Below are positions 506 to 53,749 of a stretch of 64,000 bases of DNA, one piece after another. The DNA is from a virus. Numbering within the stretch: position 1 is the stretch's first letter; each line of letters begins with the position of its first letter. The translations under genes and the position numbers were made by a program. The stretch is from positions 1 to 64,000 of IMG/VR virus record IMGVR_UViG_3300025141_015211, one strand, 5' to 3'. A model generated the notes under the pieces. It did no database searches and was not told the DNA's origin. It was given only the letters and a program-made list of their open reading frames with translations.

Positions 506-2392
506 ATGCCTATTAAAAACTTTGGAGCAGGAACCCCTAGATTTAATGAAGGGATAGTCATTACAGGGTCAGATGTGTCCGCACTACAGGTGTATCAGGA
601 TGCATCAAGCGTTTATGCAGCTGTAATTGATAACGATGCAGGTTCTGCAGGTCATGGTTTGAAAGTGACAACGGACGGAACAGGCACAGGGACAAATATT
701 CTTGACCTAGAAGCTGGTTCAACAACTGTATTTAAAGTACGAGGTGATGGAAGAGTTGGGATAGGTGTTGATACACCTGGTTCTACACTTTCTGTCGATG
801 ATGAAATAGCTGTAGGAGAAAAACTAGTTCACAGGGGTGATCCAAACACTTACTTGCAATTTCCTTCAAATGATAACATAACGTTTGCCGCTGGGGGGAG
901 CGAAGAGCTGAAAATAGCAAGTGATGCGATACTGGTTAAACAATACATTAAGCATGACGGTGATGAAGATACACTCATCAATTTTGCTGATGATAAGATA
1001 ATCCTTAAAGCCGGCAACATAGCGATGGTTACTGCGGAGCAAAAGGACTCTGCCCCTCACGAAGTCACTATTAATGATGGAAGTAACAATATTGATTTGG
1101 TTGTTAAGGGTAATGGTTCCGGTGCAGGCAACCCCGGCATGAAGTTTGATGCATCCACAAACAGACTAGGCATTAATGGAGTAGGCACACCCGATGAAGC
1201 ATTGCATGTCTGGGGCAATATTAAAGTCGATGGAACAGAGCCGACAATTGTTTTTAATGAAAGTGGGGCTGATAGAGCTGTTATTGGTGTGAACTCTTCG
1301 GACAATATTTTGATTGAAAACAAGACAATGAATAAGCATATTGTTTTCAAAGTCAACGATCAGGGAGTAGTCAGGGAAGGTTTGCGATTGGATGGTGCAG
1401 TTGCCGAAGTCGTCGTCAACCAGAGTGCAGAGTCTTTGGTTGACTTCCGAGTAGAATCTGATAACAAGACGCATGCCCTATTTGTTGACGGAAGCAGCGA
1501 AAAGGTCTTTGTTCTTTCAGGAAGTGGTGTCACTGGGGGCGACGGGCTTGATGTAAACTTCTTTGTGTCTGGATCAACAAATTCAAAAGGCACTGCAACG
1601 GCAGGCACTGCTGTCTTTGGAGGAGACACAGCTGTATCTGGTAATTTATATGTAGTAGATACGGGAGGACTATACGCAGACAAAATAAGAAGATACTCAG
1701 ATAGTGACAACACTACTAAAATACTTCTTAATGATGAACTACTTAAATTTTATGCTGGACATTCATCAAATGATATTGTACGCATTGGTGAGACAAACTA
1801 TGGTGATGATAACAACTTCTGGGTGTCTGGGTCAATAGGATCAAAAGGCACAGCAACAAGAGGTGTTGCAGTGTTTGGAGGAGACTTAATTGTTAGCGGC
1901 GGTCTCGACGTTGACGGTATGACACTTGTTGTAGACGAATCTACAAATATGGTAGGTGTAGGCACGGGATCGCCTAAAACTATATTAGATGTACATCACA
2001 ATCCTACTTCGCTATCCAACGACACGGGAGGTGGAGAAGTGGTAACTTTTGGTACAGGAAACTTAACAGCAGGTAAATTATACTTTCTCAATAGCAGCGG
2101 TGCTTGGACAGAGACAGACGCAGATTCAATCACTACGAGTGATGGTTTGCTGGGTATTGCACTCGGTGCCGCTCCTTCAGATGGTGTTCTATTGCGCGGC
2201 TTCTTTGATGCCACTACATACCTTTCTAACTTTGTATCAGGGCTACCTGTATACCTTTCCACAACTGCAGCTTCCATGGATACAACAGCGCCTTCTGGGG
2301 CATCAGACATAGTAAGGTGTGTCGGGTACTGCACAAATACGGCAAATGTTATATATTTTAACCCAGAATCGACTACACTGGAATTATCATAG
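506..2392 (+). CDS. tail fibre-like structural protein
   Basis: Gly/Ser/Thr-rich beta repeats (GRVGIG, VDFRVESD, FFVSGS..SKG...VFGGD twice); GGAGG RBS. Confidence 0.75.
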   Translation: MPIKNFGAGTPRFNEGIVITGSDVSALQVYQDASSVYAAVIDNDAGSAGHGLKVTTDGTGTGTNILDLEAGSTTVFKVRGDGRVGIGVDTPGSTLSVDDEIAVGEKLVHRGDPNTYLQFPSNDNITFAAGGSEELKIASDAILVKQYIKHDGDEDTLINFADDKIILKAGNIAMVTAEQKDSAPHEVTINDGSNNIDLVVKGNGSGAGNPGMKFDASTNRLGINGVGTPDEALHVWGNIKVDGTEPTIVFNESGADRAVIGVNSSDNILIENKTMNKHIVFKVNDQGVVREGLRLDGAVAEVVVNQSAESLVDFRVESDNKTHALFVDGSSEKVFVLSGSGVTGGDGLDVNFFVSGSTNSKGTATAGTAVFGGDTAVSGNLYVVDTGGLYADKIRRYSDSDNTTKILLNDELLKFYAGHSSNDIVRIGETNYGDDNNFWVSGSIGSKGTATRGVAVFGGDLIVSGGLDVDGMTLVVDESTNMVGVGTGSPKTILDVHHNPTSLSNDTGGGEVVTFGTGNLTAGKLYFLNSSGAWTETDADSITTSDGLLGIALGAAPSDGVLLRGFFDATTYLSNFVSGLPVYLSTTAASMDTTAPSGASDIVRCVGYCTNTANVIYFNPESTTLELS

Positions 2393-3553
2393 ATGGGTAT
2401 TGATAAAATTAATAGCATTGCTGTGTCGAGCATAGCAAAAGTATCAGGCAAAACAACATCACAGTTTTCAAAGATGGGTGGGCAAGATGTTTCTGTTGCA
2501 GCGGCAGGCGCTTCACGATTAGCAGCCGCAATGGATGACGCATATGTCTCTTGGGTTGATATTGTTGATGACGGAGATGCTTCAGTCTGGGAGACCAATA
2601 CTTACAAAGCCGGCGCCACTGGTGATACGTGGGATATGGTAGACATTGCTTACGGAAAAGACGGTAGCGGTGATCCGTTTTGGGTGACAGTTGCAGCAAA
2701 GAACAATCCAGAGATTCTCTATGACGACGACGGGGACATTACTGACGGTGTAAGGTGGGGTGAAATTAATCTCGGTAGTTCAATTCCTGGCAATCTAAAA
2801 CAGAAAACCGTTGTATGGGGAAATGATGTGTGGGTTAGCGCAGGTCTATTAACTTCTTCAAATAAATACATCTACAGATCAACAGACGGTTCAACATGGT
2901 CTGCCGTAGACATTAGCGGCGCAACTGATATCGGTAGTGTTTACTCAAGCGGTATCTACGCACTTACGAGTGATGGTGCAGGTAAGTGGTGGTTTGGAAT
3001 TGCAGGAAAGCTGTACTATTCTAGTGACAATGCTTCTTCTTGGTCGCTCCATGCAACATTTAGTGGTGAGACAATATATGACCTTGTTTACACTAATAAC
3101 ACACTTGTAGCACTTGTTAAGCACGGAGGAAACCCGCACCTTCGATCTGCAGCTTCATCAGACACAACAGACTTTAGCGACAAGACACAACTTCAAGACT
3201 CAAACGGAAACGGTCTCAACGGTAATAAAACAAAGCGGATGGCAGGTGGCGACGGACGAGTTGTCGTGATAGACACAGGACGATCGCTTGCAGCAGATGT
3301 TAACGGTAAAACAATAACAATTCAAGGGACTCGGCAAGACCTGCCTGATGAGGGTAACTTAAATTGCATTTGCACAGATGGGGACGGAAATTGGTGGACA
3401 GGAAGTGACGGTGGATCAACAGGACCAGATGGTGGAGATATTTGCAAGAGCACAGATAATGGTGCATCTTGGAGTAAAATAGCAGAAGGTATTAATGTTT
3501 CAGGCGATCGTAAAGTAGAAGGAATTGCTGTTGATGTCTACTTACCTGTATGA
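2393..3553 (+). CDS. Asp-box/BNR-repeat beta-propeller, likely tail or receptor-binding protein
   Basis: STDGSTW, SSDNASSW and STDNGASW Asp-boxes; abuts the tail fibre gene. Confidence 0.7.
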   Translation: MGIDKINSIAVSSIAKVSGKTTSQFSKMGGQDVSVAAAGASRLAAAMDDAYVSWVDIVDDGDASVWETNTYKAGATGDTWDMVDIAYGKDGSGDPFWVTVAAKNNPEILYDDDGDITDGVRWGEINLGSSIPGNLKQKTVVWGNDVWVSAGLLTSSNKYIYRSTDGSTWSAVDISGATDIGSVYSSGIYALTSDGAGKWWFGIAGKLYYSSDNASSWSLHATFSGETIYDLVYTNNTLVALVKHGGNPHLRSAASSDTTDFSDKTQLQDSNGNGLNGNKTKRMAGGDGRVVVIDTGRSLAADVNGKTITIQGTRQDLPDEGNLNCICTDGDGNWWTGSDGGSTGPDGGDICKSTDNGASWSKIAEGINVSGDRKVEGIAVDVYLPV

Positions 3554-4125: not shown

Positions 4126-4827
4126 CTAGAAGCCTGCAAGCTTTCTAAAGCGTTCGTTTCTTGCTTCGATTCTTGAGGTCATTTCTCTTACTTCTTTAAG
4201 TTCTTTTTTATCTTCTTCTTCGTGGCTGTCGCAGTGTGTCTCTTCGATGTCAGCTTCTTCAAAATACGACAATATTTCATCGTCAACGTCATCTTCATAA
4301 ACGGGCAACGGGCGTGTTACTTCTGCGACACGTTCTTCAGGTTCTATTTCTATATCAACTTCTGCGTCAGGTCCTGACTCAGCTCCAACAGGTGTTACAC
4401 CATCTTGACCTTGAGCAGCAGCGCTTCTAGCAGACGGAATCTTTTTCGCAGCATTAACAACAGCAGTAGCTTCATCATCACTTAGTACAGGTAAAAGTTT
4501 GGCTGCTCCATAGAGTGGTGCGCCTGCAACGGTAGCGAGTACTCCGCATGCCTTGCTAAGCATGCCTATGTTGCTATCGGACCCTGTTTCTTTTGGGTCT
4601 ATTTGGCAGACTGTTTTCTTAAAAAAATCAGGAAGTGCGGTAAGAATAGAAGCAAGTTTTTGTCGACCGTCTTGTGATGACATCATATTCGTTAAAACAT
4701 TGATACCTGTGTCAACTAGGACTTGCTTGCCCACTTGTGCCATATTCTCATTCAACGCGTCTCTAACAACGAGTCGCAATTCTTCTTCTTGAATGATTTG
4801 ATTAAGTTTTTCTCTATCAATTTCCAT
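4126..4827 (-). CDS. putative internal head protein
   Basis: IDREKLNQIIQEE...LNE at N-terminus, RFRKLAGF at C-terminus; start moved to ATG 4827. Confidence 0.55.
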   Translation of the reverse strand: MEIDREKLNQIIQEEELRLVVRDALNENMAQVGKQVLVDTGINVLTNMMSSQDGRQKLASILTALPDFFKKTVCQIDPKETGSDSNIGMLSKACGVLATVAGAPLYGAAKLLPVLSDDEATAVVNAAKKIPSARSAAAQGQDGVTPVGAESGPDAEVDIEIEPEERVAEVTRPLPVYEDDVDDEILSYFEEADIEETHCDSHEEEDKKELKEVREMTSRIEARNERFRKLAGF

Positions 4828-4925
4828 TTTAATACCCAAAGAGTGGTTAAAGCATATCAATAATTATCACTCTAATTTTGTATTTTAATGCAAACATGCT
4901 TACACGCTTTGTATATTTATAGATC

Positions 4926-6880: not shown

Positions 6881-7579
6881 ATGAGAATCACACATACCCG
6901 ACTAATGAAGTTTCTACGTGAAGCAATTGAGCTAAGCGATGACAGTAGAGAAAAAGCAATCGCTGCATTAAAACAGAGGCTTGAAGATGAAGGTGGCGCC
7001 ATGGGTTCTGAAGAAGCCAAAGAAACTGCACAAAATGCTGCAGGTGTCAAAATGGGTGACGAAGACTTTGAGGCACTGGCACAAGATGCTGACATTAAAA
7101 CACACAAGTCGGGTGATGTTGTAGATACAACAGGCCTTGCAGAAGGGAACAAAATGAAAATAACACGCAGACAATTAAGAAAGATTATCAAGGAAGAGTT
7201 AAGCAACACAGTTAACGAATCCATTGCTGATATGTCAGACATGGAGCGGCTGATCGGGGATTTAGCAGGAGAAGTAGCTGACAAATTTGGTGAAGCTATG
7301 GAGTCTCTCTGGGATGAAGACACCGCAATGATGCGTCAGCAAGGTTACACAGATAAATCGCAGTGGACCCGTCAAGTTGGTAGTGCAGAGATTCAGCTTG
7401 AGGAAACGATCCAGAACATGGTGACCCAAGCCATTAACGATATAGAAATGAGACTTCATGGTGGAGACTATTATGACAGTCGTGATGATGTGTCTTCGAT
7501 GGGTGGGCCCGACAGAGATAGTGACGGTGCACTTGACGCAGACGAGCTAAGAAGTATTGCTGATGATTTAGAAGGATAA
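6881..7579 (+). CDS. putative internal head protein, two-module
   Basis: MRITHTRLMKFLRE plus internal MKITRRQLRKIIKEE. Confidence 0.65.
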   Translation: MRITHTRLMKFLREAIELSDDSREKAIAALKQRLEDEGGAMGSEEAKETAQNAAGVKMGDEDFEALAQDADIKTHKSGDVVDTTGLAEGNKMKITRRQLRKIIKEELSNTVNESIADMSDMERLIGDLAGEVADKFGEAMESLWDEDTAMMRQQGYTDKSQWTRQVGSAEIQLEETIQNMVTQAINDIEMRLHGGDYYDSRDDVSSMGGPDRDSDGALDADELRSIADDLEG

Positions 7580-7583
7580 ACAA

Positions 7584-8531
7584 ATGAAAATCACACGTAA
7601 GCAATTAAGACAGATCATCAAGGAAAATGTTGCACTTGTTAATGAAGGTAATAAAAAAAATGTTGGTGAGACGAATAGTGAAATCAAACATGAAGATGTT
7701 AAAAACTTTCCACATGAAAAGCTTTCAACTGGTAGATTTATAGTTGTAAGCAAGCCCGAGCTTACTAAACTCGGTGGTGGGAAGGTTGCGCTCACTAAGC
7801 TAGCTAAAAAATACAATTTTAAAAATTACAAAACTACAGTGCACTTTAAAGAAGGTAAGTACTTTGGTGTTGTAATTTTTGAGCTAAAACCTAAAAAATC
7901 TGCCCCGCCGCCAAAAGGAAGCGAAAAGAAAATCATAGGACAAGATCTTGAATATATCGGACCTAAGATTAAGAAACTAGGTAAAAAGATGTCAGATTAT
8001 GTTTACTATAATTTGTCAACAGGATACGTAGTGGCATTTCTTAAGGATAGCCAGGATTTAAAAGCCTGGGTAAAGCGCTTGCCTAATGCAAAAGAAGCAG
8101 AATTTAGTCAAGAAGAGTTGCAAAGTGCATACAACTATAAAATGCCTGGTTTACATGAAGTCACACGCAAACAATTAAGACAGCTCATTAAAGAAGTCAT
8201 CAGTGATGACCAAGACTTTCTCCACTACGAGACTGATGCGGTGTATGCTGAATTAGTGGATCTCCTCGACGACATCGCAGCACCCAGCTGGATCAGACAG
8301 AATCTTGAAGATGGTCTTACGAAAGATCAGATAATAGCAAAGGCCCGGCGAGGTGAAGTGCGATCTAGAGAGTGGATGTCGACTGACTCAGACGGTGACG
8401 ACTATCCCAAGACTGTTGGCTATACTGATCCAAAGGGTGAAAAGCAGATGATCGTCGTCAACTCTTTAGACGATATGAATGACATCCTTGACTTATTAGC
8501 AGATCGTGACATCCCATACAGCGTAGACTAG
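7584..8531 (+). CDS. putative internal head protein, two-module
   Basis: MKITRKQLRQIIKE plus internal LHEVTRKQLRQLIKE. Confidence 0.65.
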   Translation: MKITRKQLRQIIKENVALVNEGNKKNVGETNSEIKHEDVKNFPHEKLSTGRFIVVSKPELTKLGGGKVALTKLAKKYNFKNYKTTVHFKEGKYFGVVIFELKPKKSAPPPKGSEKKIIGQDLEYIGPKIKKLGKKMSDYVYYNLSTGYVVAFLKDSQDLKAWVKRLPNAKEAEFSQEELQSAYNYKMPGLHEVTRKQLRQLIKEVISDDQDFLHYETDAVYAELVDLLDDIAAPSWIRQNLEDGLTKDQIIAKARRGEVRSREWMSTDSDGDDYPKTVGYTDPKGEKQMIVVNSLDDMNDILDLLADRDIPYSVD

Positions 8532-8539
8532 GAGAGGAA

Positions 8540-8677
8540 ATGAAAAGATTAATTCAATTTCACAAAGACTTGCTTAATGAGGTGGTTCACTATTTTGGCT
8601 TATCTCTTTATCAGACGCTGTGGATAGCATTTGCTAAGGGAATACTCATTGGTTACCTCATTGGAGAATACCTGTGA
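8540..8677 (+). CDS. small membrane protein (45 aa)
   Basis: GGAGAGG RBS; hydrophobic LWIAFAKGILIGYLIG. Confidence 0.55.
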   Translation: MKRLIQFHKDLLNEVVHYFGLSLYQTLWIAFAKGILIGYLIGEYL

Positions 8678-8802
8678 AACTTATCAAGGGCTTGTGGGAT
8701 AAGATCGTTGACGTGATTGACGACATTGCGGCCCAACTTGGTTTGCAACCCAAACCCGTTCCTGTACCCGTTAAGAACAACAGTGATCGGCGGCATAAGT
8801 GA
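8674..8802 (+). CDS. small protein (42 aa)
   Basis: GTGA-coupled start; QPKPVPVPV motif. Confidence 0.45.
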   Translation: MKLIKGLWDKIVDVIDDIAAQLGLQPKPVPVPVKNNSDRRHK

Positions 8803-8900
8803 AAAAGACTTTGGATAAAGCATTAGATGGCTTATCGCCTGAAGATTTGAAAGAGTATGAAGAAGCTATTGAGCTTTGGATAACTTACGGTGGAGATTAA
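8799..8900 (+). CDS. small protein (33 aa)
   Basis: GTGA-coupled; stop is 1 nt before ATG 8902. Confidence 0.4.
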   Translation: MKKTLDKALDGLSPEDLKEYEEAIELWITYGGD

Positions 8901-8901
8901 A

Positions 8902-9543
8902 ATGAAAATCATGCGTAAACAATTAAGACAGATTATTAAGGAAGAAGCGCAAACTCGAGACTGGACATCATTTGACGATGCTAAGATGGCATCACTTGAG
9001 TCAACATCAGATGAACCTGTTTATTGGTACAATCCTAAAGACAGTCTTATGCACACAATTGTTAATGGAGCAGTTGTTGGCAATTCGCCTAAGGTGGTTC
9101 ATGGAACCAGAGATTTTTTAGCGCATAAGCGCAAAGCTAAAGAAAACCCTGCAGCTTACTTCAATTTTACATCTGAAGAAGAAACGCTCGCTGAGGGGCA
9201 CGACACATTAAGACAGATCATAAAAGAGGCGCTAAGCAAGGCGGCACCGTTCGGAAGCGGCATGAAGCAGGCCAAACTTAACAAGGATCAGAAGAAGATC
9301 ATTGGTCACACATGACTGACTCACGTTAAGCGGAAGGATTCTGCTTTAAAAGAGGTTGGTGAGGTGCTATGGCATTCACTTAACGAATCAGGTGATATTA
9401 GGTTTTACGATGTCTACTGGACAAGAAGTGATAAGATTGAAAGAGATATTAGTGCAAAACTACTTGAAGCAGTTAAAATTAAAGAGCATGAGCATAAAGC
9501 TTCTGATCCTGGCACACCTCTCTCCGAGCGAAAGAAGAAATAA
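8902..9543 (+). CDS. candidate selenoprotein, putative internal head protein (213 aa with UGA readthrough at 9313-9315)
   Basis: frame stays open for 75 codons past TGA to TAA 9541-9543; SECIS-like hairpin follows the TGA; MKIMRKQLRQIIKEE tag. Confidence 0.75.
9316..9359 (+). promoter_or_regulatory. bacterial SECIS-like stem-loop
   Basis: AAGCGGA(9328-34)/TCTGCTT(9340-46) stem; AGGAT loop starts 19 nt after UGA; lower stem CTGAC/GTTGG. Confidence 0.7.
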
Positions 9544-9685
9544 TCTCTACTCTCGCACATGACTCCCAGGTCAAACCAACATCAGACCAATATATTTGTA
9601 CCACCTCTTTTGTTGGGTGCTTGTAAATGATTATGCCTATTGCATTATCATGTTTGCCCAAACTTACTAGATCACCGGGTGTCAT
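9479..9685 (-). CDS. small KOW/SH3-like protein
   Basis: MTPGDLV...IGIII...VEIIS. Confidence 0.6.
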   Translation of the reverse strand: MTPGDLVSLGKHDNAIGIIIYKHPTKEVVQIYWSDVGLTWESCARVEIISSFARREVCQDQKLYAHAL

Positions 9686-9709
9686 GTTAATATATATTGG
9701 TAGGATGTT

Positions 9710-10117
9710 ATGTCAGACAAAAACTTAAAAGAGGGTGACTTAATCATCGTGTCAGGCGAGACAATCAAAAAAGGTATGCCAATAGAAGAACATTATGCGC
9801 TTGCTAAAGTGCTTGCAGTAGGTAAGCATGATATCTTTGCAGCAACTGAAGACATGCGCCCTGTTGTCTTTCGTGTGTCTCGCTCAAGATGCACACCTAT
9901 TCCCTGTATTGAAACTCACCAATCTAAAGTTAGAGAAGCGCGTGTAGGTGATCTTGTTATGTCATTGACAGATAGATTTGGAAAAATAGAAAGACATGTA
10001 GGTGTTGTAGTAGAAATTAATAATTTACCTGGCAAGCATCCAATAGCTAAAATACTTGATGGTGACAAGGAGCACGCAGTAGCTTACGACTCGCTTATTG
10101 TATTAGGTGAAAACTAA
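9710..10117 (+). CDS. tandem KOW/SH3-like protein
   Basis: LKEGDLII and RVGDLV repeats. Confidence 0.6.
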   Translation: MSDKNLKEGDLIIVSGETIKKGMPIEEHYALAKVLAVGKHDIFAATEDMRPVVFRVSRSRCTPIPCIETHQSKVREARVGDLVMSLTDRFGKIERHVGVVVEINNLPGKHPIAKILDGDKEHAVAYDSLIVLGEN

Positions 10118-10306
10118 ATGAGACACAGCAAGGCACGATGTATATAAAGTAGTAGCAACAAAGTCTGCTGACAGTCTGAGCCTAAACAAAGTTGTATGAA
10201 GTTTGATACAAACACTGTTAATTTTGTAATTTTACTTACAACAATTTAAAAAAATCTTTAAGGTAAAAATTTTCCCTCGGGAAAAAATTGTTTAGAATAT
10301 TTATAT

Positions 10307-52070: not shown

Positions 52071-53708
52071 CTATCCTTGTTGAGCTAGAACTTTCTTTAA
52101 AACATTTTTACCCTTAGACTTTGATTTTAGTTGTGCATCAATAAAATCACGGGCAAATGCATTCATTCCCTCAGTATTCTGTATCCAATTTCTAGCTTTT
52201 GATCTTGCTTTTTTAAAGTCTTGCATTGACATCACGAGCTCTATTTTTTTAGAATTGGCCTTTGTTTCACCATTTATCATCTTTGTAAGCGTTCTTTTTG
52301 GATCTTCTACACCCATTTCACCAAGTATGTCTTGCTGAATTTTTTCTTCCCAAGCAGACAAAACCTTATTAATAAAAGGTTGATAGAAAAACATGCCAAA
52401 AAATTCTCTAAACTTTTCATTTCCTGTAACTTTTGGGCCCATTCTAGCGTTACTCATAAGATCTCTTGCATCTTGTGCACTAATCTGTCCTTTTTTATTT
52501 AACTCTATAACTTCTTTTCTAAAAGCTCTTGATGCCTTTGATACTATTATTTCCATTGTAGCTTTTAATATTACTTCAGACTGCAAAAACATTTTCAATG
52601 TTGGCTTAAATGCAAACTGTCTAGCCCCGGCTGCACTTGCAAAACCTTCTTCTTTAGCAATTCTTGTCCAGGTGTCTATAGCGCTTTCTTTCTCTTCTTT
52701 CTTTTCTTCTTCAGGTGTATCGTCTTCAACTTCTTCTTCTTCATCATACTGATATTGGACAGACGGGTCTTCACCTGCAAGCAATGTCTCAAGTCGTTTA
52801 GCGCCTATCATTACCATAAGGCCTGACATTGCTTTGTCTTTTTCTGACATTTTTTCTACTGTAGCATCCAAAAGTTTCTTAAATTCTTCTGGATTATTTT
52901 CTGATTTTTTCAGGATTGCATCAACTTTTGAGCTAGCATTACCTATAGCAATGTCCTCATCCGTAACACTTTCAGGATTTTTTAGAAAGCCAAGTACATA
53001 ATCATAAATTTCACTTACAACTTGTGCTCTTTGCTCTTTTGTGAGTCCTGCAAGGGATCGACGAACTGCGTCTTTATTCATTAATTCTTTTGTAATTGCA
53101 GGTGCTTCTGATTTAAACTTCGCAAATCGCACGGGAAATTTATGCAACTCACCATAATGTGCTATGTTTTGTGTGACCTTTTCATAAACAAGACTTTCAA
53201 AAACTTCGGGACTATGAAAGTAGTCTAAAATTTCGTCTGTAGCTCTAACAACATCATCTTCAATAGAAAGCGGTCGATCATACTCTTCTTCGCCTATTTC
53301 TGGTAGATCTTCATCATCTTCATCATCTTCATTTTCACTAAGTTGACTTGCTTCTTTAAGCTCTTGATTTTCTATGCGTGTGTTATCATTCAGATCTAAT
53401 GTCTTGTCTAATAGTTTGTGTAGCATCCTATAGAAATATTCTATTTGATCATTAGGCACTTCTTTTGCTATTTCACCAGCAGACAGCGCGAGCTCTTCTA
53501 AAGACGCAGGAATAAACTCAGCGTCTTCAACAGGCGGCCTATCAGTTGATAATTGAACTGCAACTTGGGGTGATGCTTCAATTGGTGCATTATCATCTTC
53601 ATCCTTTGCAGGAATTTCTGTCATGTTAGATGAACTGCCAGTTCTGTTCTCTTTAAGTGCTTTATTTATAAATTCTTTAAGTGCCTGCTTTTTTATAGAA
53701 ATTTCCAT
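52071..53708 (-). CDS. large hypothetical protein, putative virion component
   Basis: MEISIKKQALKEFINKALKE; acidic linkers. Confidence 0.65.
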   Translation of the reverse strand: MEISIKKQALKEFINKALKENRTGSSSNMTEIPAKDEDDNAPIEASPQVAVQLSTDRPPVEDAEFIPASLEELALSAGEIAKEVPNDQIEYFYRMLHKLLDKTLDLNDNTRIENQELKEASQLSENEDDEDDEDLPEIGEEEYDRPLSIEDDVVRATDEILDYFHSPEVFESLVYEKVTQNIAHYGELHKFPVRFAKFKSEAPAITKELMNKDAVRRSLAGLTKEQRAQVVSEIYDYVLGFLKNPESVTDEDIAIGNASSKVDAILKKSENNPEEFKKLLDATVEKMSEKDKAMSGLMVMIGAKRLETLLAGEDPSVQYQYDEEEEVEDDTPEEEKKEEKESAIDTWTRIAKEEGFASAAGARQFAFKPTLKMFLQSEVILKATMEIIVSKASRAFRKEVIELNKKGQISAQDARDLMSNARMGPKVTGNEKFREFFGMFFYQPFINKVLSAWEEKIQQDILGEMGVEDPKRTLTKMINGETKANSKKIELVMSMQDFKKARSKARNWIQNTEGMNAFARDFIDAQLKSKSKGKNVLKKVLAQQG

Positions 53709-53749
53709 ACGAGACTCTCCTAACATTAATTATAACAATGGGATTGACT

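Follow-up and report, generated by a model that had tools for sequence, protein, structure and literature searches.

A candidate selenoprotein gene with an in-frame UGA and a SECIS-like hairpin in an uncultured marine jumbo phage

What does a UGA codon mean when it interrupts a phage gene and the reading frame carries on behind it? The question is raised by positions 8902-9543 of a 64-kb stretch of viral DNA (hereafter the window), the first 64 kb of the 82,588-bp uncultured virus record IMGVR_UViG_3300025141_015211. An open reading frame (ORF) starts here at ATG 8902, with GGAG ahead of it, and ends in ...KKIIGHT at TGA 9313-15. Past this codon, the same frame stays open for 75 codons (LTHVKRKDSALKEVGEVLWHSL...ERKKK) to TAA 9541-43; the extension holds no in-frame ATG, and its sole alternative start is GTG 9364. 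A preliminary description, made from the window alone, had read the locus as a candidate selenoprotein gene, and the coordinates it gave for the stop and the 75 open codons, like the absence of an ATG, are all correct. The comparisons presented below make it very probable, in our view, that the gene encodes a selenoprotein of 213 residues, with selenocysteine (Sec) as the presumed residue at the UGA.

In such a gene, a ribosome arriving at UGA 9313-15 would meet, 12 nt downstream, a hairpin (9328-9346) bound by the SelB protein of the host carrying Sec-tRNA(Sec). Selenocysteine would be inserted as residue 138 and translation would proceed to TAA 9541-43; unrescued ribosomes would halt at the UGA, giving a product of 137 residues.

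The UGA codon in close and distant relatives

The codon was followed through 88 sources: the window, 13 viral-contig loci and 74 metagenome loci (DNA pattern scan). All except L042, whose contig begins after the codon, cover it, and among these 87 sources TGA stands at the Sec column in 85, including the window and 13 of 13 viral-contig loci; TGG and TGC occur once each. A motif script located 85 of the 88 sources (84 with TGA, one with TGG) and missed L021 (TGA), L042 and L087 (TGC), and at least six locus pairs among the sources are one contig present in two collections. In the set without L021 and L087, 65 of 66 distinct 69-nt stretches have TGA. Once the TGG locus L053 is set aside, every one of 66 distinct sequences has TGA at the recoded column and TGG at both genuine Trp columns of the domain. 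This recurrence of TGA and hairpin in 85 of 87 stretches is far beyond chance.

What do the protein databases show at this column? Among 179 stored proteins aligned to the profile, 22 have Cys, 43 have Trp and 12 end just before it; many metagenome proteins cross the site within a single ORF that reads ...IIGHTWLTHVKRK..., and others stop at ...GHT. Tryptophan at the column had been suggested by the first protein matches and was dropped, since the DNA shows TGA. Three of the Trp-bearing proteins (P0012, P0016 and P0020) correspond to contigs in our set (L025, L037 and L045, respectively), with matching lengths and identical sequences apart from the Trp residue, and all three contigs carry TGA. 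Because they do, and because 16 of 16 loci related to three further Trp proteins also carry TGA, the database Trp is an artefact of gene calling with TGA translated as Trp. The preliminary description had named Trp in homologues as an observation that would speak against selenocysteine; 43 such proteins are indeed stored, yet the contigs checked carry TGA, and a single lineage has a true TGG. Public protein collections show the Sec column either as a conserved Trp or as a protein cut at ...GHT, both of which hide the selenoprotein.

Cysteine appears at the column further out in the family. When 1.84 billion cluster representatives were searched with the profile, 169 of them matched at E <= 0.001, and 22 stored cluster representatives have Cys in an H-x-C-x-x-H-V context, with three recurring motif groups (VVHDCPKHVKE, KH[DNS]CATHVKE and [GS]HSCA[TN]H). 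For one Cys representative there are matches in 179 cyanophage records (131 Synechococcus, 37 Cyanophage and 10 Prochlorococcus); a tblastn search with Cys representative P0111 against phages returned no match. The N terminus of gp154 of Synechococcus phage ACG-2014d reads ...KGHDCAKQV...HTLLEDG...EKHEH; unlike the window protein, gp154, which is annotated 'cytidyltransferase', has Gln in place of the motif's second His and continues behind the domain in a long, fused C-terminal part. The H-x-C-x-x-H motif that the preliminary description named for marine T4-like phage proteins is therefore real, being found in the 22 representatives, in locus L087 and, as H-x-C with the second His replaced, in gp154; the selenocysteine would sit at a Cys position, as that description proposed, with distant homologues having Cys at the UGA column. 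A separate observation concerns the annotation of these proteins: the cyanophage Cys homologue L139 (NC_026923.1 140885-142675) forms the N-terminal part of a 596-aa protein labelled 'cytidyltransferase', a label that may refer to the C-terminal part alone.

L087, a locus on a 23-kb contig, encodes a 370-aa protein that bears the same N-terminal tag as the window protein (described below) and reads ...GHS-C(TGC)-ATHV..., with an eight-residue insertion; no hairpin follows its TGC codon. Overall, the Cys homologues of marine phages and T4-like cyanophages share with the window protein the H-x-C (here H-x-U) motif, a barrel with ..H-[ST]-L..DG..Y-D.., the C-terminal H-x-H and, in many cases, an MKIT..QL..II tag; they differ in that a Cys codon replaces the UGA and, for L087, in the lack of the hairpin. 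Sec and Cys forms alike conserve H136, U/C138, H141, H158 and H196-x-H198 (window numbering).

The same codon also recurs beyond the close relatives. Three divergent Trp-labelled representatives were used to fetch relatives from viral contigs, and in the three further subfamilies obtained in this way, all 16 loci show TGA at the Sec column.

Is the frame behind the UGA used? In the 40 codons that surround the site, codon positions 1 and 2 have an entropy of 0.38 and position 3 one of 1.08, a coding-type pattern in keeping with the downstream conservation that the preliminary description had suggested checking. Since codons vary mainly at third positions, the downstream frame is evidently translated. 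Behind the UGA there is no conserved start codon, GTG 9364 of the window being GTT, GTA or GTC in most other loci, and in the homologues both halves of the gene span one frame.

The hairpin downstream of the UGA codon

A hairpin in the position of a bacterial selenocysteine insertion sequence (SECIS) had been described directly behind the UGA, with a stem of AAGCGGA and UCUGCUU and an AGGAU loop. The comparison confirms it: the 7-bp stem begins 12 nt and the loop 19 nt after the UGA, and the stem co-varies. Loop letters A35 and U39 could form an eighth pair, leaving a GGA triloop, and RNAalifold likewise adds this A-U pair, closing a GGR triloop. Across the 66 distinct sequences, 96.3% of the stem cells are in standard pairs, and compensatory double changes affect four of the seven pairs (20 cells). 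The observed paired share and the covariation score were reached by none of 500 shuffles and the number of double-change pairs by six of 500; sliding the partner strand by 1-3 columns lowers pairing to 43-59%. The stem occurs in variants such as AAGCGGA/UCUGCUU, AAGAGGA/UCCUCUU, AGGAAGA/UCUUCCU and CGGCGGA/UCCGCCU, and the encoded residues change together in ways that preserve the pairs (KRK..SA with CGG/GCU, KRK..SS with AGG/UCU, RKK..SS with AAG/UCC). The loop has the consensus A-GG-R-U. Its G36 and G37 show no variation among the 66 sequences, and the first loop G always comes from an AAG Lys codon (66/66), never from AAA. Third-position entropy is 0.32 within the hairpin versus 1.21 outside it, as is expected where an RNA constraint acts on top of a coding one.

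How well does this element agree with known SECIS elements? The model for bacterial SECIS (bSECIS) elements, as condensed in the Fig. 2 legend of a review of the prokaryotic selenoproteome (PMC13188914), calls for 3-9 nt in the apical loop and 4-16 bp in the upper stem, a minimum free energy <= -7.5 kcal/mol, a UGA-to-loop distance of 16-37 nt and a G as the first or second loop nucleotide, mostly as N1-G-[G/U]-N-N2 with N1 and N2 paired. The window hairpin fits this model with its AGGAU loop, 7 bp, 19 nt and, with flanks, -14 kcal/mol, the fold energy of the 60 nt from the UGA. The three other subfamilies each have their own, different hairpin at the same spacing from the UGA (Table 1), and the hairpins of all four subfamilies satisfy the bSECIS loop rule. 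In five phage records (the window's own record and four related ones, 66-237 kb long and 18-77% complete), the pattern TGA-N16-GGAAGGRTYC is found at 0 mismatches in the gene itself alone, once per record, and no second such gene was seen. A G-U-rich lower stem that the preliminary description had drawn beneath the hairpin is likewise predicted by folding; its comparative support is weak, with five pairs at 88% of cells paired, a sixth at 55% and one double change.

The locus thus has much in common with bacterial genes that are decoded by SECIS and SelB, for which E. coli fdhF is the prototype: an in-frame UGA aligned with Cys in a genome where UGA is otherwise a stop, a stem-loop within the ORF directly 3' of the UGA, an early G-G or G-U in a small apical loop, and a UGA-to-loop distance of 18-20 nt. 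The SECIS element of fdhF has a bulged base, which the phage hairpin lacks. The locus also differs from these genes in that it belongs to a virus with no sel genes in the parts seen, that the family has no match in Pfam or PHROGs, and that Sec insertion is here deduced from comparison.

Alternative readings of the codon and the source of the machinery

Could ribosomes pass the UGA without selenocysteine? In the A1 protein of phage Q-beta, a UGA stop at a domain border is read by near-cognate tRNA-Trp, and as would be the case here, some ribosomes pass the UGA of a phage gene to give a short and a long product. Programmed read-through of this type would have tRNA-Trp or another near-cognate tRNA reading the codon at low frequency, stimulated by the hairpin and with a fixed ratio of short to long protein. 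It would suit the codon after the UGA, which is CUN in 62 of 66 distinct sequences, and above all the one real TGG lineage. This lineage consists of L053 and the identical L105, from contig CAYTDF010000118.1 of a metagenome-assembled genome (MAG; two assemblies, same sequence); it has 51% G+C, TGG at the column and a perfect hairpin of 7-8 bp, GGCUGAG-GGA-CUCAGCC (L053:1606-1640), which was under selection in that lineage, because it has diverged by compensated changes. A TGG codon with a retained hairpin is poorly explained by either reading unless the change to TGG is recent, and TGG is confined to this one lineage. In the distant relatives, the residue in the conserved H-x-C-x-x-H is Cys and not Trp, and the column differs in this from that of Q-beta A1, as does the SECIS-type hairpin behind it; the UGA lies inside a folded domain, in its most conserved block, rather than at a domain border. 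The two invariant loop guanines, together with the Lys codon that is never AAA, point to a sequence-specific binder rather than to stability alone, and the loop rule is obeyed by the hairpins of all four subfamilies. We consider read-through of the Q-beta type improbable.

Lower still do we rate the chance that the UGA is a plain stop, with a protein of 137 residues and a downstream conservation that belongs to a separate gene or an RNA element. Standard gene callers do end the gene here, as in the 12 stored proteins that finish in ...GHT, but the third-position variation of the 75 downstream codons, the lack of a conserved start after the UGA and the Cys homologues, which pass the site in a single ORF, all speak against it. 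A change of the genetic code throughout the genome (Trp as in code 4 or Gly as in code 25), or a suppressor tRNA of the phage, is what the database pipelines that used TGA=Trp on these contigs would imply. Of the 81 window ORFs with at least 100 aa, 24 have TGA as their stop, 34 TAA and 23 TAG, and the same gene terminates in TGA after ...RKYKK in many relatives (for example L006, L009, L013 and L044). Because of these ordinary TGA stops, the recoding is local and not a code change, as the preliminary description had concluded from gene overlaps. The genuine Trp columns, TGG in every distinct sequence, agree with this, and no tRNA with a UCA anticodon is present among the six tRNAs of the window, in the record tail (which has no tRNA) or among seven tRNAs on three stretches surrounding tRNA-like matches in two related records; we give reassignment practically no weight. 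Equally negligible is a nonsense mutation, a pseudogene or an assembly error, which is refuted by the comparison: 85 of 87 related stretches, and all 16 loci of the other subfamilies, have TGA and come from many samples. Contigs of two runs cover the TGA with zero differing letters, although these runs may be the source samples and hence not independent; those of two further runs leave 9265-9357 uncovered.

Several observations weigh against the selenoprotein reading itself. Chief among them is the TGG lineage, whose intact hairpin offers the best argument for read-through with Trp. The close subfamily lacks Cys forms, Cys being confined to more distant relatives. Folded without its flanks, the hairpin reaches -7.3 kcal/mol (z -2.9, with 2 of 200 shuffles doing as well), just short of the threshold of -7.5 kcal/mol, which is attained only with flanks. 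An Rfam search of 9200-9500 at E <= 10 returned no SECIS model and only a chance snoU13 row; bacterial SECIS elements are, according to the portion of a recent preprint that treats them (10.64898/2026.04.03.716425), poorly represented in Rfam. The AlphaFold model (64-row alignment) is of modest confidence, with a mean predicted local distance difference test (pLDDT) score of 63.6, and does not give the geometry of the site. Finally, selA, selB, selD and tRNA-Sec were not found in the five partial phage records. The use of host machinery is therefore implied for a selenoprotein made by this virus, in line with the preliminary description, which had seen no sel genes in the window and suggested that those of the host would serve.

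Which host might that be? The sole match in species genomes is L105, the 10.5-kb contig of the MAG. This MAG holds selB and selD adjoining on one contig, plus tRNA-Sec (contigs C348 and C714 of genome G005), and among 13 genomes (the MAG and 12 relatives) selB exceeds the cut-off in one. We did not adopt the MAG as the host: the phage contig is linked to it by binning alone and is possibly mis-binned.

The virus itself offers few further clues. The record is 28% complete (CheckV), and the window, at 38% G+C, includes genes for GroEL, a DnaE-type polymerase and a helicase besides its six tRNAs; the source is an uncultured marine jumbo phage. Searches of a phage collection with the DNA of 8000-10200 (blastn) and with the read-through protein (tblastn) gave no match, and GroEL and DnaE reach at most ~50% and ~32% identity, respectively, to isolated phages, so that there is no close cultured relative among them and no clue to the host from this side. 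A side observation concerns the amber codons of the window: six TAG-ended ORFs (506-3553 and, on the reverse strand, 4126-4860, 29106-29885, 30468-30953, 41639-43258 and 52071-53726) are followed by 81-386 open codons in frame, and the median open run is 26 codons after TAG versus 8 after TAA. These runs may merely reflect neighbouring genes that share a frame.

Gene architecture, predicted fold and significance

The gene consists of two modules, an N-terminal one of residues 1-100 and the Sec domain of about residues 103-213, and its features are collected in Table 1.

Table 1. Features of the candidate selenoprotein gene (window coordinates) and hairpins of the related subfamilies
Feature	Position	Strand	Description
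Whole recoded gene	8902..9543	+	213 codons; UGA (presumed Sec) = codon 138; end TAA 9541-43
N-terminal tag MKIMRKQLRQIIKEE	8902..8946	+	Motif common to neighbouring ORFs and homologues
Second, degenerate tag copy DTLRQIIKEALSK	9202..9240	+	Directly ahead of the Sec domain
H-T-U-L-T-H motif (H136, U138, H141)	9307..9324	+	Aligns with H-x-C-x-x-H of Cys homologues
In-frame UGA, presumed selenocysteine	9313..9315	+	TGA in 85/87 related stretches and in 16/16 loci of other subfamilies
Possible lower stem enclosing the hairpin	9315..9360	+	9315-9320 with 9355-9360; predicted, weakly supported
SECIS-like upper hairpin	9328..9346	+	Stem AAGCGGA 9328-9334 / UCUGCUU 9340-9346; loop AGGAU 9335-9339
C-terminal H-E-H (H196, H198)	9487..9495	+	H-x-H conserved in Sec and Cys homologues
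Subfamily hairpin			UGA-N13-AGUGGAA-GUC-UUCCACU; 5 loci
Subfamily hairpin			UGA-N12-ACUUGGG-GGUCA-CCCAAGU; 1 locus
Subfamily hairpin			UGA-N11-AAAGCUG-AGUU-CAGCUUU; 10 loci; compensating variants ACGUCUG/CAGACCU and AAGUUG/CAACUU

A full tag takes the place of the degenerate copy in many homologues. The tag is not restricted to this gene: MKITR(K/R)QLRQIIKEE heads the ORFs that start at 6881, 7584 and 8902 and recurs inside them (window 6881-9240), and in homologues it separates unrelated modules whose order differs (P0003, P0007, P0009 and P0033). Behind the domain, many homologues (L005, L010, L014, L045, L050, L070 and others) have poly-Lys followed by ..LYPYF.G.. and by ..GGDFGGGGGE, an end that is acidic and rich in Gly; the window gene ends before this LYPYF and Gly-rich tail. 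Summed contig depth rises several-fold over the tag DNA (8893-8954) and about 1.5- to 2-fold over the UGA and hairpin (9296-9357), and the contigs of one run break at 9308-9337. Both are short conserved stretches common to many co-occurring phage strains.

What might the Sec domain do? Pfam and PHROGs contain no family for the read-through protein or for the two neighbouring tag-bearing proteins, and Pfam gave none for nine of the Cys homologues. The core of the AlphaFold model has five strands (pLDDT ~80). Foldseek found no match in the pdb set at E <= 0.001, and VIA-align gave a middling best Z of 5.6 to SH3, KOW and Tudor barrels, including UBE2O; profile positions 64-110 also match Agenet/Tudor repeat proteins. 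The Sec motif is predicted to lie just ahead of a small SH3/Tudor-like beta-barrel and the conserved H-x-H, and the His-rich Sec/Cys site would form a redox or metal centre. We can sketch a broader role, which we put forward as speculation and consider rather unlikely: the selenoprotein would be a tagged virion cargo, in which the MKIT..QLRQIIKEE tags address the protein to the capsid and mark the cut site, and the Sec domain (about 100 residues, H-x-U-x-x-H ... H-x-H) would enter the host together with the DNA and act there as an effector that is redox-active or depends on metal. Its amount would be set by selenium supply and host SelB, and the four SECIS hairpins would represent an adaptation to the SelB of different hosts.

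We would also like to place the gene in the context of other viral selenoproteins. The glutathione peroxidase selenoproteins of poxviruses (molluscum contagiosum and fowlpox) depend on the Sec machinery of the host, as stated in the part of a recoding review that deals with them (PMC8310308), and the phage protein would share this reliance of a virus-encoded selenoprotein on its host. The poxvirus genes, however, belong to eukaryotic viruses, use a eukaryotic SECIS and were captured from the host, whereas the element described here is of the bacterial type and the family has been met only in phages. In its passages on selenocysteine and selenoproteins, the same review names only the two poxvirus genes. 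The terms 'phage', 'virus' and 'viral' are absent from the text of the 2026 review of the prokaryotic selenoproteome (PMC13188914), as is 'phage' from that of the Global Ocean Sampling (GOS) selenoproteome paper (PMC2398784), in which every new family is tabulated together with Cys homologues. In the searchable text of papers, we found no selenoprotein of a bacterial virus, and the phrases 'phage-encoded selenoprotein', 'phage selenoprotein' and 'selenocysteine-containing phage' occur nowhere in it. What is most likely new here is the use of the bacterial UGA/SECIS system by a phage gene, and by one of a new protein family.

The locus carries a lesson for annotation as well. Standard gene calling truncates the gene at ...GHT or mistranslates it by reading TGA as Trp, and either outcome can mislead the usual comparison of Cys with Sec. 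If the reading as a selenoprotein is true, a widespread group of large marine phages would depend on the Sec machinery of their hosts, and on selenium, for one protein, and the known selenoproteins would gain a family with an H-x-U-x-x-H centre. The hairpin could then be used as a host-range marker that indicates Sec-competent hosts.

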